Below, piece after piece: positions 11,028 to 60,042 of a stretch of 64,000 nt of DNA (its first letter is position 1; each line of letters opens with the position of its first letter). The stretch is taken from NCBI GenBank assembly GCA_965207735.1, contig OZ242296.1, forward strand, positions 2,848,001-2,912,000, in the 5' to 3' direction. The translations under genes were made by a program, and so were the position numbers. This DNA is from Candidatus Versatilivorator sp. (GTDB lineage Bacteria; Acidobacteriota; Terriglobia; Versatilivoradales; Versatilivoraceae). A model generated the notes under the pieces. That model ran no database searches, was not told the origin of the DNA, and saw only the letters and a program-made list of their open reading frames with translations.

Positions 11028-14000
11028 TTGGGTAGCCAAAACAGAATTGTCGGGACTTCTCAGCCCGCGGCCGCGGGTTCGGCCAATCCTTTGCTCGACG
11101 CCCGGCCGGAAGCTGCCACGCCGACACCCCGTCAAGAACCACCCTCCAGGCCGCGCTGCCTTTCCCTCGATCTGGAGATAAGCAAAAAAAACGGCCGTAT
11201 CCGTGCCTTCGGCGCGGTGCGGGCGGATACCGGGCAAGGGTATTCCGGCGGCGGTTCGGCATCGGAGTTGGCGAAGCTCGACGATCTGGCCCACGAGGTG
11301 TCCTTCCTTTTGGGCCACAATCTGATCGACTTCGACCTGCCTCATCTCGCGGCCGCACGGCCCGGCCTGCGGCTTCTCGAGCTGCCGGCGGTGGACACCT
11401 TGCGTCTCAGCCCCCTGGCCTTTCCACGCAATCCCTATCATGGCCTCGTCAAGCATTATCAGGACGGGGGGCTCAAGCGCGGGCGCGTGAACGACCCGGA
11501 GCTGGACTCAAGGTTGGCCCTGAAAGTATTCAGCGATCAGCAGGTGGCCCTGAAGGAGACGGCCGCGGATCTGCTCACGGCCTGGCACTGGCTGACCACC
11601 CTGGAGTCCGGGGTCCTGGACCGCGGACTGGACGATTTCTTCTCGAAGCTTCGCGATGCAAGGAGACCCTCGGACGGCCAGGCCCGGGCGGCCATAGCCC
11701 GGCGACTCTTGGGTATTGCCTGCGTGACTCAGGGGTGGGAGGTCTTGAGCAAGGCGAGAAACTGCGGCTGGGCTCTGGCCTACACGCTGGCATGGCTGTC
11801 GGTAGCGGGCGGAAACTCGGTGATGCCGCCCTGGGTGCGGCATCAGTTTCCCGAAGCAGGCCGCCTTGTGCGCCGGCTCAGAGACACGGCCTGCACCGAT
11901 CCCGCTTGCGGCTGGTGCCGGGAACGGCACGATGCCCGCAAGGAGCTGAAGCGCTGGTTCGGCTTCGACGACTATCGGCCCAAGCCGGTGGACGAGAGCG
12001 GACGCCCCCTGCAGCAGGCCATCGTGGAGGAAGCGATGGCGGGCAAGCACTTGCTGGGCATTCTGCCGACCGGTGCCGGCAAGTCTGTCTGCTACCAGGT
12101 CCCGGCCCTGTCCCGCTATTACAACACCGGCGCCCTCACGGTGGTGATCTCACCCCTGGTTGCCCTGATGGCGGATCAGGTGGCGGGGCTGGAGTCGCGC
12201 GGGATCGTCTTCTGCGTGACCGTCAACGGGCTCCTGTCCATGCCCGAACGGGCAGAAGTCCTGGATCGGGTTCGCCTGGGGGATGCAGGAATCCTCATCA
12301 TTTCGCCGGAGCAGCTCCGCTCCCGTTCCCTGCGCCGAGCACTCAATCAGCGTGAGATCGGCGGCTGGGTGCTGGACGAGGCCCACTGCCTGTCGCGCTG
12401 GGGCCATGACTTTCGCCCCGACTATCGCTATGTGGGACGCTTCATCCGAGAAAAGGCGGGCGCCGGGCCGGTACCGCCGGTGTTGTGCCTGACCGCCACC
12501 GCCAAGCCCGACGTGACCGAGGACATCAAAGGACACTTTCAGGACAAGCTCGGCATCGAATTGAAGGTCTTCGACGGCGGGGCCGACAGGCCCAACCTCA
12601 CTTTCGAGGTGATTCCGACCTCGGGAGACAAGAAGTTCAGCGACATTCACCAAGTCCTGACGTCCTATCTGCCGGCTGACACGCCCGGCGGGGCCATCGT
12701 CTACTGCGCGACCCGGCGGCAGAGCGAGGATGTGGCCGAATACCTGCAGGTGAAGGAGGTCGAGGCGGAGTATTTTCACGCGGGCCTGCAGCCGGAAAGC
12801 AAGAAGGAGGTGCAGCGCCGCTTCATCCACGGCGATCTGCGCGCCATCGTGGCGACCAATGCCTTCGGCATGGGGATAGACAAGCCGGACGTGCGGCTGG
12901 TCATTCACGGCGATATTCCGGGGTCTCTGGAAAACTATCTCCAGGAGGCCGGCCGCGCCGGGCGTGACCGCGCATCGGCGCGTTGCGTGCTGCTGTACGA
13001 GCCCGAAGACGCGGAGCGCCAGTTCGGGATGTCGGCCCGTTCGCGGCTGACCCGAAGAGAGATTCACGGCATCCTCAGGGCATTGCGCAACCTGGACCGT
13101 AAGAAGCAGTTGGGCGGCGAAGTGGTGGCCACCCCGGGCGAGATCCTGGGCGAGGACGAGGAAAAGGCGTTCGAGCGGGACTCCGCCACAGACGATACCC
13201 GGGTACGCACCGCCGTTGCTTGGCTGGAGGAGTCGGAGCTGCTGACGCGGGAGGAAAACGCCGTCCAGGTGTTTCCGTCCTCGCTGCGGGTGAGCTCGGT
13301 TGAGGAGGCCGGCAAGCGTCTTGAGCGAGCAGGTATCACCGAAGACTACCGCCGCCAGTTGTTGCGCATTACCCAGGTGTTGATCGAGGCCGACGCCGAC
13401 GAGGGCATCACCACCGATCAACTGATGGAAAATTCAGGACTGGGTCCCGAGGGCGTGCGCACGGCTTTGTACGACCTGGAGCGGCTGGGCATTGCCAGCA
13501 ACGACACCGTTCTGACCGCATTCGTTCACGCCGGCGTGGAGCGCGCATCCCGCAGGCGTCTGCAGCAAGCGGCCGACCTGGAGACGGCCCTGATCTCGCA
13601 CCTGCGTGAGGCGGCGCCGGACCTGGGCAAGGGAGATACCTCCTCCCTGCATCTGCGTATGGCCTCCCAGTTCCTGCGGGACCAGGGATTGACCGATCCC
13701 CTGCCGGAGCGGCTCTGGCGCATCATCCAAGGCATTGCCTACGACGGGCGCGGCGAGGACGGCGCCGCCGGCAGCCTCACCGTGCGGAAACTGGACGCGG
13801 AGACCGTACGGGTGACGCTGCGGCGCGAGTGGAGGCTCCTGGAGGAGGTTGCCGGCATCCGGCGGCAGGCGGCTGTCCGGCTGCTGGATCATCTGCTTTC
13901 CTGCCTGCCGCCGGGGAGCCGGGGTACGGACCTGCTGGCCGAGACGACGCTCGGCAAGCTGACACGGGCCGTTGAGTCCGATCTGATTTTGAGGAGCCGA

Positions 14001-32961: not shown

Positions 32962-33365
32962 TTCTTAGCCGGCTCGACCGCCTTCTCTCAGGGATCAATG
33001 TGGAGGGAGCGCCCCCCCGAGGGGCGGGGTAAGTGGTGGGCCGAAGGGTGGACCACTTACCCCTCCCCGGTGGCGCACCAGCGCCGAAAAAGGGTCGCTC
33101 CCTCCACTTCCGCCTCCTCCTGTGCGGCGCCACGACGCGCCGTGCGAGGCGGGGACCCGCGGCGCCGGCGCCGTACTACGCTTTACCGCAGAGGACTCGG
33201 GGAATCCGTTCCAACCCGCTTCCAATGCGGGTTTCCGGGCACAACCTGGACCACAACGGGGAGGACTGCGCCCTCTGAGAGAGGAGCGTTGGGGTGGTCA
33301 AAAGCGTGCGCCACTTAGTGAGCCACCTCGGTGAGCCACCCCCCCTTTTTAAGGTGGCCACCCAT
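32962..33365. repeat. Conserved structured non-coding module, copy C
   Basis: IR 33000-33107 and GTGMGCCAC triplet 33306-33339 overlapping the stop of the adjacent gene. Confidence 0.8.
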
Positions 33366-34310
33366 ACGACGGCACCGCCTTGACCCCCAGAGGTGGAATT
33401 CGTCGATCATTCCCTGGCCCTGGGGCTCCGGCATTGCCTGCTGCAATTGGTTGATTTTCTTGAGGGCGGCATTGAGGCCGCCATAGCGTTCGACTGTTTC
33501 CCGGTCGGCGCTGGAGACAGCCCACCGTAGAGTGAGAAGCTCTCTGCCGGCCTCAGTCAGGTCCCTGCCTACCCAGGATCGCATCACCCGCTCGGCGCGG
33601 TCCAGCAGTTCCTGCTCCCAGGCAACGGCAACCACTTCGATCCGCCACCCTAACTCGCGCAGCATCTGCCAGAGCGGCCGGTGGGCCTCTCTCCAGGAGT
33701 CCAGCTCAGTACGGGTTTCCATGCCGGGGTCGATGTAGACGAACAGGGCCGCCTCCGGCCCCATGGCAACCGGCATCCTGAGGGGAAAATACTGGACCCG
33801 CCCCTTGGCATGGCCGGCGTAGATCCTGCGGGGCAGCATCCATGGCTCGATCCCGAGCTGTTGGAAGCAAGCGAGCTTCTCCCGCTCGGTCGGCAGCCAG
33901 GCCAACTCCGGATGATCGAGCACGAAATCGAGCAATAGCAGTCGCCGGCGGGTGACTTCAAGCGAGGTCTCCCGGCGGTGACGGATGGGGGGGATCTCCA
34001 GTTCCCCGTAGATCTGCTTGCCGAAGATCCGGCAAATCCGGCGGCCGTCGGTGATGGTCTCCGACGCGATTGGCTTGTGGGAAATGCGTGTCCGGAGCAA
34101 TGCCCGGATAAAGCGGTTGGCGCTGGACTTGGCGTATCCGAAGAAAGCCTCGACCTGGTCCCGGGTGAACAGGCCCGAGTGCAGGCAGACCAGGGTGATC
34201 CATTCGGCCTGTTGGGGGGTGAAGCCAAGAGGCCTCAGCAGTTTTTCCCGTCCCTTCAGGTGAGGAAACTTCGTCGTTTCCTTGGGTCGGCCGACCTGGA
34301 GAAAGGTCAT
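33315..34310 (-). CDS. Uncharacterised wHTH-like protein, candidate replication/relaxation protein of the island
   Basis: GFTPQQAEWITLVCLHSGLFTRDQV..FIRAL; follows integrase; remnants at two other module copies; function inferred. Confidence 0.6.
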   Translation of the reverse strand: MTFLQVGRPKETTKFPHLKGREKLLRPLGFTPQQAEWITLVCLHSGLFTRDQVEAFFGYAKSSANRFIRALLRTRISHKPIASETITDGRRICRIFGKQIYGELEIPPIRHRRETSLEVTRRRLLLLDFVLDHPELAWLPTEREKLACFQQLGIEPWMLPRRIYAGHAKGRVQYFPLRMPVAMGPEAALFVYIDPGMETRTELDSWREAHRPLWQMLRELGWRIEVVAVAWEQELLDRAERVMRSWVGRDLTEAGRELLTLRWAVSSADRETVERYGGLNAALKKINQLQQAMPEPQGQGMIDEFHLWGSRRCRRMGGHLKKGGWLTEVAH

Positions 34311-34430
34311 CAGAATTCCATGGGGTTCCACAGGGAAACAAAACGGTGGTTCGGCGGGGAGCTGCGGTTCACTGCCAACGAGCAGGGAGATGGCAATGGA
34401 TTGTTTCAGGACCGATCCCCCTGGGCCTCT

Positions 34431-35663
34431 TTACTCTCGGGGCTTCCGGTCCTCCCCCATCCCCTGGTCCAGATAACGCGCCCAGTCGTCCATCAGGACA
34501 CGCCGGCGCTCGAACAGGTCGGAGCGGGCATAGGCCGCCTCCACCCGGTTCCGGACCACATGCGCCAGGGCCGCCTCGATCACCTCTCGTGAATGATCGG
34601 TCTCCTCACCTGCCCAGTCCCGGAAGCTGGAGCGGAACCCGTGCGGCACCGCCGCAATCCCAAGATCCCGCACCATCCACCTCAGCTGCTTGTCGTCGAG
34701 CGGCTCCCCTTGCCCACGGGTGAACACCAGAGGTCCGGATCCTTTGCCCAGTGCCTCCACTGCCTTGAGAATCTCCAGGGCACGTCCACACAGCGGCACC
34801 CGGTGCTGGCGGTTGGCCTTCATCCGACTGGCCGGGACGGTCCATACACCAGCGTCCCGATCGATCTCCGCCCATTCGGCCCAGCGCACCTCACTCCACC
34901 TGGCTGCCGTCAGTACCAGGAACTCGAAGGCCAGCTTGGCTACCTCCGACGCTGTCGCTGCCCGCACCGTCCGGATGGCCGCAGCCACCTCCCTATGCGG
35001 CAAGGCCCGCATGTGCTCGGTAACGTCCTGTTGGGGACCCAGGACCGGGCCGATCCTGTCGCAGGGGTTGTCGATTCTGTACTCCATGGCTACGGCCCAT
35101 TCCAGGACCGCCCGCAGGCGCTGGCGCACCCGCCGGGCGCTGGAGGCCTTCCGGTGCCAGATAGGGGTGAGGATCTCAAGCAGATCGGCGCTGGTGACCT
35201 CTGAGACCGGCATCTTGCCGATGCGGGGGAAGGCGTACCGCCTCAGGCTGGACATCCACTCGCGGTGGTGACGCCGGCCTCGCCAGCCGTCCCGCTTCTG
35301 TTCCAGCACACGTGAGGCTGCTTCGACAAAGGTGGGAATACCCTCGGTGCGTCGCTTCTCGGCAAGAGGATCTCCGCCCTCACGGGCCAGCTTGCGGTTA
35401 GCCAGGGCCTTCTCCCTGGCCTCGGCCAGGGAGACCAGGGCGAGGCTGCCGAGACCGAGCTCCCGGCGACGGCCACGGACGACAAGGCGTTGAATCCAAC
35501 TGCGGGTTCCGCTGGGCTGGACGAAGAGGTACAATCCGTTTCCATCGGCGTATCTTCCGGGCGGAGCGGAGCGCAGGAAGGCGGCCGAGAGGGCGTTGCT
35601 GGGGTGGCGGCCGGCGGGTTTGGTCTTGGGTCGGACAGGAGCGAAGTCCGTTACAGTATCCAT
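34431..35663 (-). CDS. P4-like tyrosine integrase with N-terminal arm-binding domain
   Basis: GRYADGNGLYL..SW..RRRELGLG arm domain; catalytic R (TAAR), K, HGFR, LAH, Y. Confidence 0.93.
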   Translation of the reverse strand: MDTVTDFAPVRPKTKPAGRHPSNALSAAFLRSAPPGRYADGNGLYLFVQPSGTRSWIQRLVVRGRRRELGLGSLALVSLAEAREKALANRKLAREGGDPLAEKRRTEGIPTFVEAASRVLEQKRDGWRGRRHHREWMSSLRRYAFPRIGKMPVSEVTSADLLEILTPIWHRKASSARRVRQRLRAVLEWAVAMEYRIDNPCDRIGPVLGPQQDVTEHMRALPHREVAAAIRTVRAATASEVAKLAFEFLVLTAARWSEVRWAEWAEIDRDAGVWTVPASRMKANRQHRVPLCGRALEILKAVEALGKGSGPLVFTRGQGEPLDDKQLRWMVRDLGIAAVPHGFRSSFRDWAGEETDHSREVIEAALAHVVRNRVEAAYARSDLFERRRVLMDDWARYLDQGMGEDRKPRE

Positions 35664-35895
35664 CCCCCCATTATATGGGGGATGGCAGTGGATTGCAAGG
35701 GATGTTGGTAGCAAGTCAAGCCACGGCAGGACTTATATAAAACACTCATAAATAAGACAGTTATAGACTCTACTGGACGGAGCTAGACATCACTGGATTT
35801 TATAGGGACGTTGCGGCGGCGGCAGCAATCATCCGCGGTATTCGATCTCAAACCTGCCGGACCGCTCCCACCCCAGTCCGCACCCTGAAGACTCC

Positions 35896-40033: not shown

Positions 40034-40318
40034 ATGAACCCTCCACATTTCGAACCCCGACGAAGCTGGACAATCAAAGAGGCCAAGGCGCGTCTATGCG
40101 AAATTTTACGCCTCGCCGAAGAGGAGGGACCACAGCAAATCGGTAGGAGAAAACCCTTCGTCGTCGTGCCTGCCCCGGACTGGTACGCGAGGAGACCACC
40201 GCGCAAACCCATGGGAAAGTGGTTGGTGGACAACATGCCTCGCGGGGTGAACCTGGATGTCTCCGGGAAAAGGGAATCCGGGAGAGAAATTCCGTTCTCC
40301 GCAGCCAAACCAGCATGA
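40034..40318 (+). CDS. Phd/YefM-family antitoxin
   Basis: WTIKEAKARLCEILRLAEEEGPQQI..FVVVP. Confidence 0.8.
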   Translation: MNPPHFEPRRSWTIKEAKARLCEILRLAEEEGPQQIGRRKPFVVVPAPDWYARRPPRKPMGKWLVDNMPRGVNLDVSGKRESGREIPFSAAKPA

Positions 40319-40426: not shown

Positions 40427-40831
40427 TCACTCGACATCTTGGCCGGTGAGAACGTATTCGAATCGGTCACACTCCCGAGCCAAGGTCTCGATATAGAGCA
40501 CGAGCTCATCTTGGTCCAGTGTCGCAGCCGGAGCCTCAATTTGACCCACCAGCCTGTCGTCATTATCGAACCCAAAGGTAACCAGTGCCTTCGAGGCATT
40601 TCGACGCCACGCCCTGCGGGCGATCCGGCGCCTCTGGTGTTTGTTGCGGGAAACTTCAGAATTTGACAGCACTACCGCGCGGAAGATGTATCGCTCCTTA
40701 TCGCGTGATAACAACACGCTATGGTGGCGGGCACTCTTGTAAAGCGCGACGCGTAGCGTCTCGCCCTCTCGTTCCCACCGTAGGCCCGGCATTTTCGAGA
40801 GGTCGTCGATTCGTTGTTGCAGCGTCCTCAT
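40427..40831 (-). CDS. YbjN/T3SS-chaperone-like protein, gene 4 of putative defence operon
   Basis: AWRRN...VTFGFDNDDRLVGQI...LD.DEL..YI..LARECDRFE; ATGA overlap with helicase stop. Confidence 0.6.
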   Translation of the reverse strand: MRTLQQRIDDLSKMPGLRWEREGETLRVALYKSARHHSVLLSRDKERYIFRAVVLSNSEVSRNKHQRRRIARRAWRRNASKALVTFGFDNDDRLVGQIEAPAATLDQDELVLYIETLARECDRFEYVLTGQDVE

Positions 40832-43800
40832 GACCCTTCCCTCGCAGATTTGCCGTCAGAGGTCCTCTCAACCAGTCGAGCCGCCATTGTCCCGGCAGCG
40901 GTGACGGTTCTTGTCACGAGCGACTCGAGTTCCTCGAATTGCGTGCAGTGCGGATGAAACAGGATGTCACCTTCGATGTAGACGCGGTCGGTCCGGTCTG
41001 CTGTGTCTGGGCGGACACACACCTTGACCAGACCCAACTCGTGCTGAAGCTCGTACAACTCGTCAAGCCCGTCTTCGTCGCGTTCAATGTCTAGAGGACC
41101 AACTGCGCTGCTACAGTGCAGCAAGGTCGCGTCTCCGGCTGCCTGAGACCGCAACTGCAATTGAAACCGCTGTTCCACTCCTTTCTCATCTGTGTCGCGA
41201 TGGATCAGCTTCGCTCGGTTCACGCGCGCGTTGCCTTCCCGTACCAATGGATCGTCCGCAGGAAAATCACGAATGGCGTAACGCTCTTGGAGAGTTGACC
41301 ACAGTTCCTGAAAATGCGCGAAATCTGCCTTAAGATTGCGTTTCTCGACAGATTTCGCCCCAAGTGTTCCTTTGCGCCACTGAGATAAAACTGGAAAGGC
41401 AGACTCCAGTTCGCCTTCGGGCACCGGGATTGAGTCGAGGTCTTCGAGCATTTCCCGGGCTGCATCGATTCGGCTGCCGAGCGCCTCCGAATCGCCCTTT
41501 TTTCGATGAATTAACTGCAAAAACCTGTTGAGACGGTGCAGTACCCTGCGAACTTGCAGAACCTCGACCGTATCTTGGAGGTGAGGATAGTAGACCTGGA
41601 GAAACTCACCGGCACCTGGAGTGCCGTCGGTTCCGTCCAGACGTCTTTGAACCAGCGAGCCGATGCGGTCAATGCGACCTGTGCGCTGTTCCATGGCCGA
41701 CGGCGTCCAAGTGATGCCGTAGTGAATAATATGCCGACAGAACGTGTGGAGGTCTTCACCCTCCTGAAGGACGTCAGTCGTTACCAGGGCGAGCGGGAAG
41801 CCAGGCATTCGAAACTGAGACACGAGCCGCTTGCTGACTCCCCCGGTCATCCTCCCGACCGGCACTTGCCGTTGGAGCGTAGCACCGAACCGACCGGCAA
41901 GTTGGTCCAGGTCTCCGGTGGGTATGTCTGGGAAGTTGACACCGACCAGCAGGTCGAACCACTTCGCGGCCTGGGAAAGCTCGTAAAATGCGTGAAAACC
42001 AGTCTGCTTGGACTGACGATACAGGAGTTCGACGAACGATCGTGCCAGATTTGGCACTGGAGCGCCCGAGTCGAATTCCTGGCGCAGAGTGAATGCGCCA
42101 AGCTGTTTGATGGCCAACAGATAGAGGTCGATATACGTAGCACCGAGGCGAGCCATTGCGCTCAGCAACTCACGGCGTTGTTCTCGCCTCCGGAACCGTT
42201 GGCGGAAGTTGTCGACAGAATCCTCGGGCCAAACCTGCTCTCTGAGGGTCTGACATTTTGCGAGTTCAGTGAAAAAACTCGTGAAGCCGATTGCTTGCTC
42301 GGGATCCGGAAAGCCTTCCGGCGGTTCAAGCGTCCCTCTGTGTGGATCGGGAAATCTTTCGTGTAGAACGACACGCGCTCGATCGCCTAGAGTTCCCCCA
42401 GCCTTCACGATCAACTCCAGGGCTGCTTGCTGGTACGCGAGAAACACCTGACGCCGGGGATAGCCCTTCGCTCTATGCGTGAGACGCTTGAAGTGCCAGT
42501 AGGCGCAAGTCTTGAGGGTGTCGACAAGTTCGGGAATCGACATTTTGGAGATGCGAGCGATTCTGTCGAGCGGATCCTCTGGCCTGCCCAATAACCAACT
42601 GACATAGTCGTCCTCGAAGAAGGTGGCGTAGACCGAGCTGTGACTTGACAAACGATTCTTCTGAAACGCCGCACCCGATAAAATTCCCTGGGGACCCCTG
42701 CCTCGAAAAAACCACGAGAAGAACGTTTCCGTGCTCCCCTCGTCATCGTCGCCAATACCGCTACGTTCTTCGGGGAGCTCATCCGGGTGATCTTCCTTTT
42801 CATCTAAGGGGAGCACCTCAACTTGTTGCTCTGGTCGCATCGCCCTTTCGCGCTTGTACTGGTTGAACAGCCTTTCGATTTCGTTAGATAACTCCGGGAG
42901 GAATGTCTCCATGCGATTCCGTAGCCAGCGGTCGAAGTGTGCGTCCAACTTTGCTGCCAACTCATCAACTGTCCTGACACGACGTACAAAAACCAGAACC
43001 TTGTCGCCACTGTCAAACATGTGGGCAAATGAGTTGGCAGTACTGTCGAGCTTCGGGTGAGGGAGTGTCGCATGGAATCTGGAACGATGGGACTCAACCA
43101 TTGCCGCAATGGCATCAGTGTCGACTCCAAGACGTTCTTCCACCGTGTCTCCCTGGCTACCGTCGAAGCTCGACGTCGGACCATCTTCGTGCTCGCCTGC
43201 CACCTGTTCTAACCGCCTGGAGCTCCGATTGCGCGTCCCGACCGTTTCCAGAAAACTCTCAAACGAGGACAGCATTCCGATCTGAAAATTGTTCTGGAAC
43301 TTTTCATCCCCGAGGACTTCCGCAACCTTTTTCTGCATCAGGCCAACGACCAGTCGCTGCTTGGGGTCGTCGATCCGTATGGGCAGGTCGTGATTCCGAT
43401 AGCCACCTTGACGCCATTCCCGTCGATACATGTTCTTCGTGTAGCGTCGTCCTGCGATCCTGAGGCTCCCCACACGCCGAACCATGAGTCGACCAACGAT
43501 GTCACGCTTCTCGTCCTCCGAGACATCGGAGTTGAGCAGGAGATCGACGCTGACCGGATCTGCGCCATTTGCGTCCCACAACCTAGTTTTGCCAAAGCCG
43601 AACACCTCGAGCTGGCGTTGTATTGCCGCGTAATCATCCTCGAAGGGGGTCGCCGAGAGGAGCAATACGCGCGCGGGCTTGTGTCGGTACCACGGATGTT
43701 CGTCGGCATGGCCATCTGGATGTCCAAACGCAAGGCCCATGACTCGGTTACGAGTACTGACGTTAGGACCGAATCCATGCTTGAGGTTGTGCCCTTCATC

Positions 43801-44415
43801 AATCACCAGCAGGTCAATCGGAGGCACGGCAGCGTTGATGGCGCATCCGTAGGCATCGCGGAATGCTTCCGGCGTCTCCGCCGATAGAACTTGCCGAGGC
43901 AGCCACCTGACACGTTCCAATAGGCGCCTTCGTAGTCGACTTCGGCGTTCCGGAACCTTGACGGCGAGGCTGAAGCTCGTCATGCGAAGGAAGAAGTCGC
44001 GGTCGGCGTTGAGTAGAGTTTCGCCTGCAAAGTCGAGCAGGCTGTTGCAGTACACTGGCTCCCAGGCTGGTTTACCCTGGAGAGACTTGACACGGTTACC
44101 GGTCAGTCTCCAGTTGAGCCGAACGAAGTTCTTGAGCTCCTTGATCCACTTCCGCTGAATATTCTCGCGCGGGGCGACGACGGCGATACGCGCGTGTGGA
44201 TTGAAATATCGTGTCAACCCCATGACGCCGAGCGCAACGTAGGTCTTGCCCATGCCGACTTCGTCAGCCAAGTAGGCGCACCGGTTTTGCTGCAGCATGT
44301 TGAAGAGCGCGACCGTTCCTTCAAGTTGCTGCTCGGCGAAGCCAAACCCCTTTGCGAGCACGGTCGGGGCGAAGTCGATGAGCTCTTGAACAAACGAGGG
44401 CGTGACGGTGTTCAT
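40828..44415 (-). CDS. SF2 (SNF2-like) helicase, gene 3 of putative defence operon
   Basis: LADEVGMGKT, IDEGHN, LLSATP, TDVLQEGEDLH, QRTGRIDR. Confidence 0.9.
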   Translation of the reverse strand: MNTVTPSFVQELIDFAPTVLAKGFGFAEQQLEGTVALFNMLQQNRCAYLADEVGMGKTYVALGVMGLTRYFNPHARIAVVAPRENIQRKWIKELKNFVRLNWRLTGNRVKSLQGKPAWEPVYCNSLLDFAGETLLNADRDFFLRMTSFSLAVKVPERRSRLRRRLLERVRWLPRQVLSAETPEAFRDAYGCAINAAVPPIDLLVIDEGHNLKHGFGPNVSTRNRVMGLAFGHPDGHADEHPWYRHKPARVLLLSATPFEDDYAAIQRQLEVFGFGKTRLWDANGADPVSVDLLLNSDVSEDEKRDIVGRLMVRRVGSLRIAGRRYTKNMYRREWRQGGYRNHDLPIRIDDPKQRLVVGLMQKKVAEVLGDEKFQNNFQIGMLSSFESFLETVGTRNRSSRRLEQVAGEHEDGPTSSFDGSQGDTVEERLGVDTDAIAAMVESHRSRFHATLPHPKLDSTANSFAHMFDSGDKVLVFVRRVRTVDELAAKLDAHFDRWLRNRMETFLPELSNEIERLFNQYKRERAMRPEQQVEVLPLDEKEDHPDELPEERSGIGDDDEGSTETFFSWFFRGRGPQGILSGAAFQKNRLSSHSSVYATFFEDDYVSWLLGRPEDPLDRIARISKMSIPELVDTLKTCAYWHFKRLTHRAKGYPRRQVFLAYQQAALELIVKAGGTLGDRARVVLHERFPDPHRGTLEPPEGFPDPEQAIGFTSFFTELAKCQTLREQVWPEDSVDNFRQRFRRREQRRELLSAMARLGATYIDLYLLAIKQLGAFTLRQEFDSGAPVPNLARSFVELLYRQSKQTGFHAFYELSQAAKWFDLLVGVNFPDIPTGDLDQLAGRFGATLQRQVPVGRMTGGVSKRLVSQFRMPGFPLALVTTDVLQEGEDLHTFCRHIIHYGITWTPSAMEQRTGRIDRIGSLVQRRLDGTDGTPGAGEFLQVYYPHLQDTVEVLQVRRVLHRLNRFLQLIHRKKGDSEALGSRIDAAREMLEDLDSIPVPEGELESAFPVLSQWRKGTLGAKSVEKRNLKADFAHFQELWSTLQERYAIRDFPADDPLVREGNARVNRAKLIHRDTDEKGVEQRFQLQLRSQAAGDATLLHCSSAVGPLDIERDEDGLDELYELQHELGLVKVCVRPDTADRTDRVYIEGDILFHPHCTQFEELESLVTRTVTAAGTMAARLVERTSDGKSAREGS

Positions 44416-46490
44416 CGCCAGCTATCACCCTGAGCAACAGGCCGAAGGAAGACTTCTTCGTACCACTGCAGGAAGTCGTCGGCCTCCGGTTCGTGGAGTT
44501 TAAGCATGCTCCGTAGACGAGGGAGATGGCTTAGCTGCTCATCCAAGCGTTTGACATGTAACGCTCGACTCCCGAAAAATTTCTCGTGCCGACGCCCGAA
44601 CTTGTGCCTCAACTGCTTCGCGCACAACAGCGTTACGTACGCAAGAATCGGATCACTGTCTGGCTGTTTAAGCACGTTGGCGAGCAGATTGGGGAGAGAA
44701 TCGTACTTGGCACCGAGCAAGCGAGCTTCCGCCACGTTTTCGCGTCCGTTCCCAAGGGCTTCGTCAATGGACCGCTCGAAACAGCCAAAGCCGTGATAGA
44801 TGCCGGCGAAGCGGTCGAAGAGAGTATCTCGTGCACGTAATCTGTCGGTGCGGGAGACAGCCAAGCCTTCGACTTGATCGGGAATACGAGATTCCATGAA
44901 CTGTGCGCGCTGTGCCGGAGTGAGCAAGGACCAGTACTCTAGTATCTCCGCAGGAGTCAATTCCAGGAGGAGCGATGGACGATGTCCCATGTTCTCTTCC
45001 CTTATTAGGACACGCCCGGAATTAACGCCGTAGCGAACGACGAGAAAGCTCGTGGAACGCAGTAGGTTCTGCAGGCGGTCCGAGACATCTTTATCAAATG
45101 CGGTCCAGCGACAATTGACAGGATTGTTGATGGTCGCGAGCGCTTCCCCAGCAGTCGTCAGGACGGTGAATCCGTCAGGCGCATGGTCCTCGAGTCGGTA
45201 ACTGAACTCTTTTTTTCCCCAGTCGAATCGAAGGCTGAGGTTCAGCCCAACAGCATCGCAACCGTCTTCGTTTGTTGGCGTGTTAGGAACAAATCGATCA
45301 GCGTCTCGGTCCAGAGGGTCCAACCACCAATGACGGGCGTACCGAGCTTGGCTGAAATCGACAAGAAACGCCGCCTCCAGGTTTCCCGCACCGCCGTGGG
45401 AATGACCGGCTCTTGTGAGATTCGGTGAACCGACCAACAAGAGATCCGGACCGCCCCGCTTCCAGAATCGATATACCTTGGCGTGAACTCGTCGCGAAAC
45501 GAGGCGCTCGCTTAGACGGTCGCGCCCTCTGCTGACCACCTCCCCCGGGAACCGTGCCCACTGGGTGGAATCAAGATCCCTGATCGCTTCGTAAGTGTCC
45601 CGTGTGACGAGAGATGTGCCGTCGGAATCCGTTGGATGAAAAATCCGTATCTCTTTCGGTCGAACGGCGCCGATGAGCTCTCGCAGGGGACCCTCACCTT
45701 GCGAATCGAAAAATGGCGAGATGACCTCAAGGTTCAAGTCGTGCTTATCGAGAGAGAACTGCCGTAGCCACGTAGAGAGCGACTCGCGGCTCTGTCCCGC
45801 AAAAATCCGCGTGTGATAGCTGTTATCCGAGTGTCTCCGCGCAACGTGACCGCGTTGCGTTCTCTGGAGAAGAAAATTCCTGATTGCCTCTAACGCGGAC
45901 TGGTCGTCTGTATCGCTGGCCGAAAGTCGAATTCTTCGAATAATTGAAAGCAAGTCAGATCGAAATGATTGTCGCTTTCCATCGACAGCACGATCCTTGA
46001 TCTCCTCAATATGGGCACACTCGACGTTTTCCCACCAGCCAGCCCGGGTCAGGTTAGCCGAAAGAATGCCGACGATCAGCGCCATATGGGTAGACGCCGG
46101 CTCTCCTCCGTTACGACCAATGGCATTGTCATCGCTGTTCCGTTCCTGAACGAGGAGCAAAATCACCTTTGGATGGAAATAGCCGGTTCTTCGACTGACG
46201 TCCAGGCGACGGTAGTCCAATTGCGCCGGTTCGCCGTCCTGAGCGAGCGCCCGCCGGTCGTAGTACACGGCCAAATGATCGATCGTGCCAAGGGCATCCT
46301 CGAGCTGCAAACGCCGCACCTTCTCGGGCTGGCTGAAGGGACGGTCGAACAAAACCGGCAGGATATGGAGTTCAAAAAAGCCTGGGTCGAAGCTAAAGGT
46401 CGTGAAGACGGCGGTCTTCACCTGCCGCCCATCAATGGCATCGGCCACCTGCTCGGTAAGCACTTCGAGGGGAATGAGATGCGAGGACAT
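44412..46490 (-). CDS. Phospholipase D-superfamily nuclease, gene 2 of putative defence operon
   Basis: TTFSFDP, FHPKV..SANLT, VHAKVY..GSPNLT..NLEA (two HxK motifs). Confidence 0.82.
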   Translation of the reverse strand: MSSHLIPLEVLTEQVADAIDGRQVKTAVFTTFSFDPGFFELHILPVLFDRPFSQPEKVRRLQLEDALGTIDHLAVYYDRRALAQDGEPAQLDYRRLDVSRRTGYFHPKVILLLVQERNSDDNAIGRNGGEPASTHMALIVGILSANLTRAGWWENVECAHIEEIKDRAVDGKRQSFRSDLLSIIRRIRLSASDTDDQSALEAIRNFLLQRTQRGHVARRHSDNSYHTRIFAGQSRESLSTWLRQFSLDKHDLNLEVISPFFDSQGEGPLRELIGAVRPKEIRIFHPTDSDGTSLVTRDTYEAIRDLDSTQWARFPGEVVSRGRDRLSERLVSRRVHAKVYRFWKRGGPDLLLVGSPNLTRAGHSHGGAGNLEAAFLVDFSQARYARHWWLDPLDRDADRFVPNTPTNEDGCDAVGLNLSLRFDWGKKEFSYRLEDHAPDGFTVLTTAGEALATINNPVNCRWTAFDKDVSDRLQNLLRSTSFLVVRYGVNSGRVLIREENMGHRPSLLLELTPAEILEYWSLLTPAQRAQFMESRIPDQVEGLAVSRTDRLRARDTLFDRFAGIYHGFGCFERSIDEALGNGRENVAEARLLGAKYDSLPNLLANVLKQPDSDPILAYVTLLCAKQLRHKFGRRHEKFFGSRALHVKRLDEQLSHLPRLRSMLKLHEPEADDFLQWYEEVFLRPVAQGDSWR

Positions 46491-46493
46491 GGG

Positions 46494-47771
46494 TTAGTGC
46501 TGCAACTGCCGAGTGACGCTCTTGAGAGCGTCCACGAAATAGCTGTTCATCCAAAGCTCGGGTAGTTCGTGCTTTGGGGGTAGGGGCTGTTCAGCACCGC
46601 GATATCTCACGTCAAGTCGCGTACCGTCGCCGATGCGCGCCCAGGGAGCCCCACCACGGGTTTGCATCACCTGCTCGTTCCATGCCAGAAGTCCCTGGAT
46701 AGCCGCCTCATAGTCTCCTCTCTGCAAGGCTGCGTGGACCTCATTCATTCGGGAATCAACGGATACGGAGGAGGTTGATCGAATCTCGGCAAGCATTTCT
46801 GCAAAGGCCGAGGGTTCAAGATTTGGGACACGTGCACCCCAGACTTGGCGCACCTCGGAGGCGACGTCTGAGAGGCGCTGACCATCACGAGTCAGCACGT
46901 GCTGGAAGAGCGCGGCGGCTGGTGCAAGAAGAGCTTCGAGGTGGGCGATCCGCTCAAGAGAGTTTGCAAGCCCTGGGTCCGATCGTCTTGCTCGTTTGGA
47001 GAGATGGACTATCTCGGCGCGTCCCGTGGGTTCGTTCAGCTTAGATTCCGACTCCAATAGGCGCCGGAACCTTTCCTGTCGCCCTGATTTTGCACCGTCG
47101 ACCTCTTTCCCGTCTCGCAGGTAGGAGCCGTAGAATTCGAATTCAATGGAGCTGAATCTCGGGTCCAAAACCTCGGACAGCGCGGAGAAGAGGGCGTTGC
47201 TTTCGTGGGTTCGAAGTTTGCCCCCTCGGGCAAGCAGTTTTCGCAGTTTGGCCGCCGAGCCGTTCAGTCTACTGATGTAGTTGTGCTCAATGAACTCTCG
47301 GGCAACCGGGGCTACATCACGAGTGGCATCCGGGAGCAAGCCAGAGGTGCGGGCAGGAACCGAATACAAGCCCCAGAGCCCATAGACTTTCTGGTCGGCC
47401 AGGATCATGCTTCGCCGGTCAGCGGAAATACTCACATAACCAGCTTGCTCATGGACAAAGCGCTTTACACGCTCGATGCCACGGATTTCCCCTTCAACTG
47501 CATGGCCGACGTACCGCACATAGGCACCAATCTGTTCCATCCGTAGGAAGATGTCGAGCGCATCTTCCGGAGCAGCCAAGCCTCCTTCTACGAGATCAGC
47601 CGCAAAATAGCGGCCGAGCAGGAGAGTCGTGAAACCTCGAACGGAAGTACTTTGAGTGGTAAGGTTGGTGACAATGTGGCGGCCAAACGCGGTCCAAATG
47701 GGTTGGACACCTAACGGATCGCGCGATCCGCTAATCTTGGCATTGGGGTCTTCCAGAGTGAGGAAAGGCAC
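46494..47771 (-). CDS. Conserved hypothetical DPLG-motif protein, gene 1 of putative defence operon
   Basis: GTG start PFLT..; GSRDPLGVQPIW..NLTT; YGLWGLY; 3 bp gap to PLD gene. Confidence 0.75.
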   Translation of the reverse strand: MPFLTLEDPNAKISGSRDPLGVQPIWTAFGRHIVTNLTTQSTSVRGFTTLLLGRYFAADLVEGGLAAPEDALDIFLRMEQIGAYVRYVGHAVEGEIRGIERVKRFVHEQAGYVSISADRRSMILADQKVYGLWGLYSVPARTSGLLPDATRDVAPVAREFIEHNYISRLNGSAAKLRKLLARGGKLRTHESNALFSALSEVLDPRFSSIEFEFYGSYLRDGKEVDGAKSGRQERFRRLLESESKLNEPTGRAEIVHLSKRARRSDPGLANSLERIAHLEALLAPAAALFQHVLTRDGQRLSDVASEVRQVWGARVPNLEPSAFAEMLAEIRSTSSVSVDSRMNEVHAALQRGDYEAAIQGLLAWNEQVMQTRGGAPWARIGDGTRLDVRYRGAEQPLPPKHELPELWMNSYFVDALKSVTRQLQH

Positions 47772-47814
47772 GGCGTGAAGAAAGTTATAGAGAATCGAGG
47801 TTGTTGTCAACGCC

Positions 47815-48010
47815 ACTGGGATTGAGCTTGGCGCGTGTACGGGCCTCAATCGGAGAGCGAGAGATCTCGAATTCGGGACCAAGTCGCTGGTAGGCTTTGC
47901 GGTATTCTGGATCCTCGCTCCATTTCTCGTGCAGATCGGCCACCTTGCTCATTTCGTTACCTCTCCGGCGCGCCTCAGCGCCAGTTCAATTTCTCGGCGG
48001 GGCGCAGCCT
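47815..48010 (-). pseudogene. HigBA-like toxin-antitoxin remnant
   Basis: Toxin tail PRREIELALRRAGEVTK overlapping ATG 47952 of MSKVADLHEKWSEDPEYRKAYQRLGPEFEISRSPIEARTRAKL, truncated before the HTH. Confidence 0.65.
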
Positions 48011-50348: not shown

Positions 50349-52343
50349 GTAGAGTCGAGGGGAGGCGCGCCGGCCTTAGATCGAGGGAGTCGCTGTTGCC
50401 GGCGGCTTTCGCCACTCGCCGGTGCCTCAATCTCGTTCCTCGCTGCGTTTCCTCGCCCCCGCTCGTCAAACCGGACGTGCGGTTTTCCCGCATCCGGCTT
50501 TCAGTCAAGATCATGCCTTCGCCCTCGGAAGGCTCTGTGGCTTCGACCCCAGGCAAGTGAGTCCATAGGTTTTCCATAGTCTCTCGTCCGAGAAGCGCAC
50601 ACTCCCCCCGGTCCTCACCTTGTGCTTCCGACAGAGCCACTGACGCAGCCGCCCGCCCGCGTGGCGGTCGATCGCTCGGTAGGCCGGGCTCACCTGCCCC
50701 AGAACGAAGTAGTTCGCCCACCCGGTCATCGCCCGGTTCAGGTGTTCTACCATCTGTCCTCGAAGCAGCGTCCCGTTCCTCGGCGCCGTCCACTCGCTGA
50801 TCTTGCGGCAGATGCTCTGGACGCTCGCCTGGCTGGGTCGTGTGCCGATGTAGGCTCCTTTCCCTTTGGGGCGATAGTTGCGTCCGATGCGATATCCCAG
50901 AAACCCCATCGGTTCCTCCGGACACCGCAAGCATCGGGTCTTCCGCTCGTTGACCGGTAGCTTCAGCTCCTCCATGATCCGCTTGACCGCCGTCAGCATC
51001 TCTGCCGCCGGTGCCCTGCCGAGTACACGGAAGTCATCCGCATAGTTGACGATCTCCGCACAGAAGCGCCGGGCATATCCCAGCACCTTCCAGCCCAAAA
51101 CGAAGCGCCGCATGTAGAGATTGCTGAGCAACGGTGAGATCGGGGCTCCTTGCGGTGTCCCCTTCCGCTCCCGGCGCCCTCGGTTCCGGCGGCGTCTGCC
51201 ACCCTTCCCGTCGTCCTCCTCCACCGGCATCTCCAGCCATGCCTTGATGAGCTTGAGCATCCTCCCGTCACTCACGCGCCGGGCAATGCTTCGAATCAGC
51301 TCCGCATGCGGAATCTCGCCGAAGTAGTTGGACAGGTCGCCGTCAACCACCTCCTGGTAACCCCTTTGCAGGAGTTCATGCACGCGTTTGACCGCGTCGT
51401 TGGCACTCCGCCCCCGCCGATAGCCATATTGCTCCGGTTGCAGGTCCGCTTCGAAGATCGGCTCCAACACCAGCAAAGCCGCCGTCTGCGCTACCCGGTC
51501 CCGTATGCAGGGTATGCCCAAAGGCCGGAACTTGCCGGGCTGTTTCTTCGGGATCAGCACCTGCCGCACCGGCTTCGGTACGTAGGTTCCTTCCCTCAGG
51601 TCCCGCGCCAGTTCCCCCAGCCAGCCCTCCACCCCATACGCCTCGATGTCCTTGAAGCCCTCCCCGTCCACCCCGGCCGACCCGCCGTTTCGGCGTACCT
51701 GTGCCCAGGCTTCCTTCAGAAAGTCCTCTCGCCACACCTTGTCCGACAGCGCATGAAACCGCCGCTTGGGGTCCTCCTTCGCTTTCGCATGTAGCATGGT
51801 CTGGAATTTCCGAACCCCCTCTGACCCTGTTAGACTCTTGTCAGTGGCCACGCCTTGCCTCCTTTCCATGCTGCTCTCAACTCAGGGTCCCTTCCCTCCA
51901 CCGGCGTTACCCGGCTTCTCCGGTACTACCGACCCATCCGCCACCCTGACGGCCCGGCCTGCCCCTCGCGGGGTCCCGGTTGATGTGTGCCGCATCTCCC
52001 CCAGGGCTTCCCGTGTTGCTGCCTTCTTCCCCTTCCATGCGTGCCAGCGTCACTACCCCGACGGAAGCGGATCGGTGCCCGCGTCGCTCTCTTCCCCATC
52101 CGCCAACGGCCTTCCCCTAAAGACAGGAGGGTCGGCTTCCGTATTGTCCGTTTCGAGGCCTGCTCGACGTTCACTCGCGTTCCGGCCCGCATGCTCGCTG
52201 AGCCGCCCTTGGCGGCCCTTGACCCCAGAGTGCTTCAGACCATTTCGTTACCTCCATGATCCGCCCTGGCTGCTACCAACCGGAGCGACAGTTGTTGGGC
52301 GGGGTTCGCACCCGCCAGAAGAAGGCGCCTTTCCACGGCGCAC
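50349..52343 (-). mobile_element. Group II intron, copy 2 (1,995 bp)
   Basis: Matches copy 1 except one visible silent change (A4347 vs G51600); GTGCG and CTAC ends. Confidence 0.95.
50511..51869 (-). CDS. ltrA: Group II intron reverse transcriptase/maturase
   Basis: Protein identical to 3258-4616. Confidence 0.95.
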   Translation of the reverse strand: MERRQGVATDKSLTGSEGVRKFQTMLHAKAKEDPKRRFHALSDKVWREDFLKEAWAQVRRNGGSAGVDGEGFKDIEAYGVEGWLGELARDLREGTYVPKPVRQVLIPKKQPGKFRPLGIPCIRDRVAQTAALLVLEPIFEADLQPEQYGYRRGRSANDAVKRVHELLQRGYQEVVDGDLSNYFGEIPHAELIRSIARRVSDGRMLKLIKAWLEMPVEEDDGKGGRRRRNRGRRERKGTPQGAPISPLLSNLYMRRFVLGWKVLGYARRFCAEIVNYADDFRVLGRAPAAEMLTAVKRIMEELKLPVNERKTRCLRCPEEPMGFLGYRIGRNYRPKGKGAYIGTRPSQASVQSICRKISEWTAPRNGTLLRGQMVEHLNRAMTGWANYFVLGQVSPAYRAIDRHAGGRLRQWLCRKHKVRTGGSVRFSDERLWKTYGLTCLGSKPQSLPRAKA

Positions 52344-53461: not shown

Positions 53462-55545
53462 CCCATCTTTAACACGGCTTCCAAGTATACGTTTATTATC
53501 AACAGGTTACAAAAGGCTCAACGCGCAAGTGGCACTACAAACGCGTTGAAACCGGAGATTTTGGAGGAATCAGACGATCATCTTGCGGATCCCTCCAGGA
53601 GAGGGATCGATGCCCAGGGCGTCGTAGATGGCCCTCTGATCGGGTTCGGCCCGTGTGGCCTTGCGGACGTGCAAGGTCCGCCCGTCCTGACGCCGGAAGG
53701 TGACCGTGACCCGCTGCTGTCCTTCCAGGATGCGCCGCAGCGTGGTCCAACTGGAGGCCTCGCCGCGCTGCTTGAGGCGTTTGCGGATGACCTGCACCAG
53801 TTGATAGGCGATGACCGTCAGAAACAGGTGACCTTCCGAGCGCACCGGCTTGTGATGATAGATGGGCCGCAGGCCCAGCTCGGACTTCAGGGAGCGAAAC
53901 ACCGCTTCCACGTCGGTCAGAGTCGTGTAGGTACGCCAGAGACTTTCCTCGTCCCAGTCAGTCTGGTTGCTGCGCAGGCAGTAGACCCCCGGATGGGTGG
54001 CCATCGAGCCCTGGCGGGGACGGTGCTTCCATCTCAGCGCTGTCGCCTTGCGGCCGCTCTCGTCGGTGAGGACCTCGATGCTGTAGTGTTGCCCCACCCC
54101 GCGGCTCTGTTCCTTCAGCCGCCCGATCCTCTCCCGGACCTTCTCGACGCCTTTGTGAGTCCGCGGCCGGGAAAGCCCCTCGGAGAGTCGGGTGAGCCCC
54201 TGCTCGAAGCGCCGGCTGAAGCGCTCCACGATGCCCTTCTCCTTCTCAGCCCGCTGCTGTGAGCGGCAGTAGAGACGCACTTCCTGCCCGTCGTCGGAGA
54301 TCTCCTTGTGGAGCTGCAGCTCGGCCTTGGAAGCCGTCTCCACCGTCACGGCCGCCTCGGCATCGAACTGCCTCCGGCCCTGGCGGCTGGCCACCAGGTA
54401 GCGATACCCTTCCTCCCTCAACCACTGGATCCGGTCCTCGGTCGCCACCCCCCGATCCATCACCACCAAGGCTCCCCGGGGCGCCTCCAGCGCCTCCAGC
54501 ATCCCCTCCAGGGTGCGGGGCTCATCCACCCTACCGGCAAAGACCTCCGAGCGGCGCACAAACCCCGCCCCGTCCAGCACCAACCCCAGCGTCAGCAGCC
54601 GACAGTCGCTGCGCTTGTCCTTCGAGTGGCCCCGCTCGGCCTTGGGCTGATGGCTGGCCGCCCCTTCGAAGAAGGTGTTGGTCAGATCGAACAGGGTGAC
54701 GGTCGGCTCCAGATCGAACAACCCCATGGCCCGGGTGAAGAGGTGACGCTCGATGGCCTCCCGATGCTTCATCAGCGCGTCCGAGGCCCGATACATCTGC
54801 ATCAGACTCAGGCTCTCGAAGTCAACCTCCAGCAACTCGCCCAAGCCGCTGCGCCGCCTGAGCCAGCCCCAGGTGGCCCTCTCCGAGCCCGGTCGGGCCA
54901 GACGGCCTACCATGGCCCCCAACGCCGCTGCCCGCATCGGTCCGTTCAGCCCTAACTCGGTCAGCAGATCCCCCAGCCCCAACTGCTCCAGCGCCCAGCA
55001 ACCGACCTGCTCCACCCCCACGCTGCGCGGACGTGTCAAGGCCACCGAATCCACCTCGACCGTCTGCAGGTCCTCTGAGGCGGCCTCCCCGCCAACGCCG
55101 GTCACGTCGGCTTCGCCCTCAAGCAAGCGCTGGGCCATGCGTTGGGCTTCCTCCTCCAACGGGGTGGAAGCCACCGGCAAGAGAGGCAACTGACCGGTGA
55201 GGATCTGATCGAGACGGCGGCACAACAAGGGCCAGTCCTCACGGGGGATCGAGAAGTGTCGACCGAGGTTGAGGAGGGTCTGCTGGCGGACCTTGCCACT
55301 GACGCGATGGGAGCGGACGAGGCGGTGGGTGAAGTAGGTCTGTCCGGAATGGAGGCTGCGGGTCTGGGTGCGTCGGATGAACATGGGAGGGACGCTACCA
55401 GAGGAGAGAGAGGGGGTCAAGCCCATCCCATACGATTATGGCACTACATTCACCTCCTCAACCAAGAATCAACAACTTACGGGTGGTTTTAGGCTAAAAT
55501 GGGGGTAAAATACCTCAAATCGGCCGTTTCTTTGTTAAAGATGGG
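53462..55545 (-). mobile_element. IS1634-family element
   Basis: IRs CCCATCTTTAACA / TGTTAAAGATGGG, TTAG duplication, IHF-like sites in both ends. Confidence 0.9.
53570..55384 (-). CDS. IS1634-family DDE transposase
   Basis: MFIRRT..; LFDLTNTFFEG, GHSKDKRSD, VVMDRG, VEAVFRSLKSELGLRPIYH. Confidence 0.92.
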   Translation of the reverse strand: MFIRRTQTRSLHSGQTYFTHRLVRSHRVSGKVRQQTLLNLGRHFSIPREDWPLLCRRLDQILTGQLPLLPVASTPLEEEAQRMAQRLLEGEADVTGVGGEAASEDLQTVEVDSVALTRPRSVGVEQVGCWALEQLGLGDLLTELGLNGPMRAAALGAMVGRLARPGSERATWGWLRRRSGLGELLEVDFESLSLMQMYRASDALMKHREAIERHLFTRAMGLFDLEPTVTLFDLTNTFFEGAASHQPKAERGHSKDKRSDCRLLTLGLVLDGAGFVRRSEVFAGRVDEPRTLEGMLEALEAPRGALVVMDRGVATEDRIQWLREEGYRYLVASRQGRRQFDAEAAVTVETASKAELQLHKEISDDGQEVRLYCRSQQRAEKEKGIVERFSRRFEQGLTRLSEGLSRPRTHKGVEKVRERIGRLKEQSRGVGQHYSIEVLTDESGRKATALRWKHRPRQGSMATHPGVYCLRSNQTDWDEESLWRTYTTLTDVEAVFRSLKSELGLRPIYHHKPVRSEGHLFLTVIAYQLVQVIRKRLKQRGEASSWTTLRRILEGQQRVTVTFRRQDGRTLHVRKATRAEPDQRAIYDALGIDPSPGGIRKMIV

Positions 55546-59966: not shown

Positions 59967-60042
<76 letters not shown>

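Follow-up and report, generated by a model that had tools for sequence, protein, structure and literature searches.

The closest described relatives of the locus considered here are two three-gene systems. Azaca is a validated anti-phage system composed of ZacA (DUF6361), ZacB (PLD) and ZacC (SF2 helicase), and the Azaca preprint states that all three subunits and the Walker A motif of ZacC are needed to cut T4 DNA (10.1101/2025.07.10.664194). PDC-M27, with components A, B and C, is listed by PADLOC as a phage defence candidate and belongs to the PDC set of Payne et al. (10.1101/2024.01.29.577857); 'M27' does not appear in the main text of that preprint, to the extent that it was accessible, and the name 'PDC-M27' was not found elsewhere in the literature searched. 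In a 64,000 nt stretch of the Candidatus Versatilivorator sp. genome (contig OZ242296.1, positions 2,848,001 to 2,912,000; hereafter the window), four open reading frames (ORFs) on the minus strand, in the order gene 1, gene 2, gene 3, gene 4 (window 40427..47771), make up a cassette whose first three genes resemble both systems. What is new relative to PDC-M27 and Azaca is a predicted chaperone-fold heterodimer tied to the end of the helicase motor, contributed by a C-terminal tail on the gene 3 protein and by the gene 4 protein.

Genes 1 to 3 are adjacent and in the same order as the genes of PDC-M27 (A, tandem PLD nuclease, SF2 helicase), and each best matches the corresponding profile. The best PADLOC match for gene 1 was PDC-M27A (E 6.5e-23), gene 2 matched PDC-M27B (9.3e-18) and ZacB (5.6e-16), and gene 3 matched PDC-M27C (1.5e-67) and ZacC (4.1e-21), as well as Pfam ResIII and Helicase_C. 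The best matches are to defence profiles, in agreement with the original prediction, made from the DNA sequence alone, of a PLD nuclease and SF2 helicase core of defence type. HHalign probabilities were 99.2 % over 395 columns for gene 1, 99.6 % over 514 columns for gene 2 and 100 % over 780 columns for gene 3. However, the cassette proteins score only 79, 62 and 227 bits (A, B and C), compared with 571-1288 bits for two canonical PDC-M27 plasmid loci (L067 and L068) used for calibration. In L067 and L068 the helicase stops near residue 870, and neither a tail nor a gene 4 was detected, whereas the cassette has an extra tail domain and a fourth gene. In a scan of the hidden Markov model library neither was matched by any PADLOC profile, and none of 14 tail or gene-4 sequences matched a PADLOC profile, including the 1217-position PDLC04554; the four-gene form, which had not been recognized initially, is without a full match among those profiles. 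In a tree of helicase cores (FastTree, 145 cores, 537 columns, rooted by choice on ZacC), the PDC-M27C pair is sister to the tail-bearing clade with support of 0.95. The tree was sampled with a profile of the tail-bearing clade, so it is compatible both with gain of the module by that clade and with its loss from PDC-M27. Judged from these sequence comparisons, the three-gene core is a distant sister of PDC-M27 and not a member.

Azaca had been suggested as a possible relative. That relationship is retained, but PDC-M27, not Azaca, is the nearest catalogued system. The comparison set consisted of five Azaca loci from the same phylum, and the ZacA alignment has four rows only. The order of the three genes is the same, and gene 2 aligns with ZacB over two PLD domains, with both HxK motifs aligned (HHalign 96.6 %). 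In contrast, gene 3 aligns with ZacC only at motifs I and V-VI and scores 73 bits, compared with 862-1153 bits for true ZacC, and no chaperone-fold tail or fourth gene was found by our profiles in the five Azaca loci. This genome contains no ZacC match at E<=1e-30, while 6/401 genomes of the phylum do. Gene 1 has no match to PADLOC ZacA or Pfam DUF6361, and its direct alignment with ZacA (HHalign 1.5-1.7 %) is not significant. An N-terminal motif, D-P/E-L-G...S/T-T, is shared by the A subunits and becomes significant only through intermediate operons. When three of these, L099-L101, were added, the match reached 77.7 % (E 1.9e-5) over 41 columns, with a score of 48.2 compared with at most 13.9 in 25 reversed controls. 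A protein atlas entry for gene 1 also gives DUF6361 at 0.85, which is a lead only. L099 (4320-11250) is an A-PLD-helicase operon of very remote relationship, and its helicase, 1266 aa long, has a gene-4-like domain at the end (E 5e-5); L100 and L101, which bridge gene 1 to ZacA, are distant operons without such a domain. On profile evidence, the core is a remoter relative of Azaca than of PDC-M27 and is not an Azaca member; the scores and the make-up of the locus place it outside both systems.

Gene 1 is likely to encode a non-catalytic scaffold, homologous to PDC-M27A and remotely related to ZacA/DUF6361. The two HxK motifs and the helicase motifs are intact, as originally described. In gene 2, the HxK motifs are HPK at residue 106 (H106) and HAK at residue 336 (H336), both within conserved blocks (FHPK...SANLT and HAK...GSxNL), and the classic D of HxKxxxxD is absent from both; the C-terminal half of the protein is conserved and likely to be helical. 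Gene 3 contains ADEVGMGKT (50-58), DEGH (206-209), SATP (254-257), QEGEDL and QRTGRIDR. A long insertion separates its RecA lobes, and the predicted chaperone-fold domain is at its C-terminus. DISARM DrmD, DpdE, BrxH and ZorD were rejected as assignments, as the matches were at motif level. Sequence searches of solved structures matched the helicase to RapA at its motifs only and returned nothing useful for genes 2 and 4, and an NCBIfam scan of the cassette gave no match near the cut-off. In viral contigs, no relative of the helicase or of gene 4 was found with the patterns used.

The tail and gene 4 were originally proposed to share a beta-alpha pattern and a YbjN/CesT fold, and the two peptides quoted for them are both present. 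The resemblance is seen in predicted structure and not in sequence, where HHalign gave a probability of 0.2 %; a recent duplication giving rise to the two was rejected on the same value. The tail is a C-terminal domain as stated, but is about 150 aa long (residues ~1030-1185) instead of ~120 aa. Its AlphaFold2 model has a mean pLDDT (predicted local distance difference test) of 92.6, and the four best Foldseek matches are 3cxj, YbjN 6vu7, VecA and 2plg, all YbjN-family proteins or type III secretion chaperones (best E 9e-4, template modelling (TM) score about 0.5). Unrelated START-like and coat proteins come next in the list, with similar E-values but low probability and TM score. Gene 4 matches Pfam YbjN (PF10722) with E 3.8e-4 and 21.1 bits, which is below the cut-off of 22; the same family is matched weakly (E<=0.05) by 22/42 gene-4 homologues, and PF10722 is in the precomputed annotation of two of them. 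None of 45 tails matched the YbjN or TY-Chap1 profiles.

A natural fusion of the two domains provided a further model. The tail plus gene-4 fragment of L021 (292 aa, 42-row alignment) was predicted with a pLDDT of 91.5 and a predicted TM score (pTM) of 0.89, confidence being lower only in the linker and at the extreme C-terminus. Foldseek's own matches were re-aligned using VIA, and the fold assignments rest on these two steps. The first half of the fragment, homologous to the tail, aligned with chaperones at Z up to 11.0 (root-mean-square deviation (rmsd) 3.0, 128 aligned), and for the second half, homologous to gene 4, the highest Z was 8.9, against 1xkp_C from the SycN-YscB heterodimer (rmsd 3.3, 118 aligned); unrelated folds begin at Z 5.8. 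The tail and gene 4 are both predicted to have the YbjN/CesT fold (helix, beta-meander, helix, strands, long C-terminal helix), in line with the original prediction. Because the pTM of a natural fusion is this high, the models suggest that the two domains pack in a fixed relative orientation. The heterodimer that had been postulated is backed by the natural fusions and by the fused model, and stays a prediction.

The predicted alpha-beta meander of both domains is shared with YbjN, AmyR, DR1245, CesT, SycN-YscB and ExsC (Z 8-11), and SycN-YscB also resembles the predicted arrangement here in pairing two dissimilar copies of the chaperone fold. Unlike YbjN and the type III secretion chaperones, to which identity is 5-16 %, one copy is here a covalent part of a helicase. 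It has been proposed that YbjN-like 'TY-chaperones' bind peptides in conflict systems of other kinds; the TY-Chap genes described there sit in ADP-ribosylglycohydrolase systems and not in PLD-helicase operons (PMC9503650). A chaperone-fold module on such a helicase was not described in the literature searched, though a description could exist in subscription journals or in bioRxiv supplements such as the PDC tables. Term look-ups in the accessible text found no Azaca, YbjN or chaperone in PMC12839542 and 10.64898/2026.05.13.724313, no Azaca or DUF6361 in 10.1101/2022.05.11.491447, and one sentence on Azaca in 10.1101/2024.10.26.620412.

Gene 4 is a constant component of the system. Loci were selected by helicase (n=66; 12 from genomes and 54 from metagenomes), and four more that had been picked by gene 4 were excluded. 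Two of the 66 end too near a contig edge and 11 have no tail in the available sequence (contig ends, and one broken helicase). In all 53 loci with a tail and downstream room gene 4 was present, separate in 45 and fused in 8, although many of these loci are kin and they do not amount to 53 independent events. The co-conservation looked for in the neighbourhood was thus found. Gene 4 was found in 5/401 genomes of the phylum, each time directly after a tailed helicase; the four other than this one all have the full A-B-C set, and an independent search with PDC-M27C was topped by the same 5 genomes. Broken or interrupted cassettes are seen in related genomes (L005, L008, L009 and L012), with insertions of 1.3-2.4 kb in genes 2 or 3 and, in L009, a truncated helicase.

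Fusion of gene 4 to the helicase end was seen in 16/120 close homologues. More distantly, 150 helicase representatives were obtained at 50 % clustering, and 126 of them have >=140 residues after the core (the other 24 are fragments or lack the core). Using tail and gene-4 profiles built partly from proteins of the same representatives, 88 of the 126 have the tail only, 24 the tail and a fused gene 4, 5 a fused gene 4 with the tail undetected, and 9 neither; whether a separate gene 4 lies beside a 'tail only' protein is known for fetched loci only. Along the 145-row helicase tree, parsimony, applied with no shuffle control, gives 13 or more changes in the fused state. The family is large, with 745 representatives at E<=1e-30, some of which may come from further branches of the superfamily. 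By eye, P0309 has an extra C-terminal domain beyond the fused gene-4 domain, and P0314 has a similar domain with no detectable chaperone-fold module.

Across 20 complete loci, mean identity is 0.47 for the tail, 0.52 for gene 4, 0.56 for gene 2, 0.57 for gene 1, and 0.66 and 0.79 for the two helicase lobes, so that, of the six regions, the tail and gene 4 vary most. Eleven gene-4 residues are nevertheless invariant across 42 sequences, including R35 and those of the motifs W75-x-x-N78 and C121-D-R-x-E125.

The features of the cassette are listed in Table 1. As originally noted, the genes are co-oriented, with 3 bp between genes 1 and 2 and ATGA overlaps at genes 2/3 and 3/4, and the GC content is lower than that of the flanks (0.566 compared with 0.651 and 0.634; genome 0.619). 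Only 1.3 % of 716 genome windows of equal size have a GC content as low. GC at third codon positions is 0.60-0.65 in the cassette and 0.74-0.84 in four nearby genes, and the genome has one copy of each cassette gene. In most of the homologues listed an ATG or GTG at the same position backs the GTG start of gene 1. No clear Shine-Dalgarno sequence precedes it, and a TTGACA-15 nt-TATAAC element (window 47810-47771, minus strand) ends 12 nt ahead of the GTG. Some close homologues have similar elements in the same position, and the operon may thus have almost no leader. No RNA data containing the cassette were listed among sequencing runs, which says nothing on its expression.

Table 1. Features of the four-gene cassette (window coordinates)
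Feature	Position	Strand	Size and start
Gene 1, A subunit, 'RDPLG' protein	46494..47771	-	425 aa, GTG start
Gene 2, B subunit, tandem PLD nuclease	44412..46490	-	692 aa
Gene 3, C subunit, SNF2-like SF2 helicase/translocase	40828..44415	-	1195 aa
Helicase tail, first YbjN/type III secretion chaperone-fold domain (predicted)	40861..41328	-	
Gene 4, D subunit, second YbjN/type III secretion chaperone-fold domain (predicted)	40427..40831	-	134 aa

The cassette has a decayed toxin-antitoxin-like region on one side and an orphan Phd-like gene on the other, with an integrase and further mobile genes nearby. Immediately upstream of gene 1 (window 47800-47990, minus strand), a frameshifted C-terminus is followed by the start of a helix-turn-helix (HTH)-type ORF that ends at the cassette edge; we take these remnants to be a decayed toxin-antitoxin pair, with a RelE/HigB-like C-terminus and an HTH antitoxin-like start. 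Convergent with gene 4 is a Phd/YefM-like antitoxin gene (window 40034-40318, plus strand; Pfam E 3.6e-4, below the cut-off) with no obvious toxin, and DNA resembling it comes after gene 4 in L001 and L002 as well. Further out are a tyrosine integrase and a gene of unknown function after it (window 33315-35714), a group II intron-like reverse transcriptase (50511-51869) and a transposase-like ORF (53570-55426), both identified by eye, and a tRNA-Lys gene (59967-60042). In L004, two copies of tRNA-Arg(CCG) (3747-3823 and 12189-12265) directly flank a homologous cassette, as would be seen had just the four genes been inserted at a tRNA. Flanks vary from locus to locus. Among 142 of 150 flanking ORFs (8 duplicates dropped), we read a nuclease-, Abi-, Sir2-, STAND- or methylase-type neighbour at 15/30 loci, a count that has no background control and that is an underestimate because many loci are short. 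A DNA methylase was a neighbour at 1/30 loci.

The cassette is very probably a defence system of some kind. Our preferred, though tentative, reading of its action is that the heterodimer of tail and gene 4 binds a phage-derived peptide and in this way gates ATP-driven DNA cleavage by the PLD subunit. By analogy with Azaca, A, B and C would form one ATP-dependent nuclease-translocase complex, in which DNA cleavage would need all three proteins and the Walker A motif of the helicase (10.1101/2025.07.10.664194). The tail and the gene 4 protein would, as modelled, pair at the motor end as a chaperone-fold heterodimer, which would bind an extended peptide as secretion chaperones do; peptide binding would then be relayed to the motor's neighbouring second RecA lobe and would switch on DNA cutting by the PLD subunit. 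Peptide binding and its transmission to the RecA lobe, both suggested by the fold, are the weakest steps. We came to peptide gating because of the role of the fold elsewhere, the TY-chaperone proposal (PMC9503650), and the position of the tail as the most variable region. The constant presence of gene 4 after the tail, the repeated fusions and the predicted fold also speak for this reading. Variability of the tail and gene 4 is what a sensor might show, and the low GC content, patchy distribution and defence-type neighbours supply a context of defence.

Several observations weigh against peptide gating. There are many reasons why accessory domains evolve more quickly than enzyme cores, and the variability of gene 4 is little above that of genes 1 and 2. 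The invariant residues of gene 4 fit a fixed internal partner as well as they fit a changing phage ligand. The L021 fusion was folded as one chain without controls, and AlphaFold packing may lean on solved chaperone dimers. Nine of the 126 distant helicases show neither domain by profile. Purified Azaca cuts T4 DNA in vitro with no chaperone-fold module (10.1101/2025.07.10.664194); together with the two canonical PDC-M27 loci that have no module, this indicates that a protein trigger may be unnecessary for the core chemistry.

A fixed partner of this kind could belong to the system itself. The heterodimer would then be an internal latch or assembly factor that binds a peptide from one of the system's subunits and holds the nuclease in a folded or silent state until infection frees it from that peptide; the ExsC-ExsE partner switch is a model for such a mechanism. 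In keeping with this, the W75-x-x-N78 and C121-D-R-x-E125 motifs, which are surface motifs, persist in distant fusions, gene 4 is never missing where it would be visible, and ExsC and SycN-YscB are among the structural matches. We nonetheless regard it as rather unlikely, as the existence of PDC-M27 and Azaca cores with no module indicates that the module is not needed to assemble such a core, and no candidate peptide specific to tail-bearing systems was found: the conserved N-terminus of gene 1 is also in PDC-M27A. An internal partner is dispensed with altogether if the cassette, like Azaca, reads modified or structurally unusual phage DNA. The paired domains would in that case bind no peptide and would be an appendage with a structural or nucleic-acid-binding role. 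In vitro, Azaca has a preference for T4 DNA, the near absence of methylase neighbours means that self/non-self discrimination is probably not based on host methylation, and gene 4 has an Arg-rich helix (residues ~62-78). However, the gene-4 domains of different homologues carry net charges anywhere from -8 to +12 and the tail is mostly acidic, which is not what a conserved surface for DNA binding would show, and the solved ligands of the fold in the match lists are mostly proteins, which leaves this explanation improbable. Least probable by a long way is that the cassette plays no part in phage defence and is a horizontally moved module for DNA repair or recombination. Repair, too, employs SF2 helicases and nucleases, and one structural match, Deinococcus DR1245, is described in a paper title as a DdrB partner, but the best family matches are to defence profiles, and the patchy distribution, variable flanks and several broken or interrupted copies (noted above) do not suit a repair module.

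How nuclease-helicase defence systems distinguish phage from self is still largely open, and the function of the YbjN family in the cell is poorly defined. The present family allows a clean comparison between close cousins with the module (the tail-bearing clade) and without it (PDC-M27 and Azaca), and offers natural fused and split forms, while the current PADLOC profiles cover this four-part system weakly and in part. It is possible, if somewhat doubtful, that a large, uncatalogued branch of the Azaca/PDC-M27 group has turned a heterodimer of the secretion-chaperone type into a receptor for phage proteins wired to a DNA translocase. If this is true, a DNA-reading nuclease would have been turned into a protein-triggered one, and the YbjN fold would be a pattern-recognition domain of bacterial immunity.

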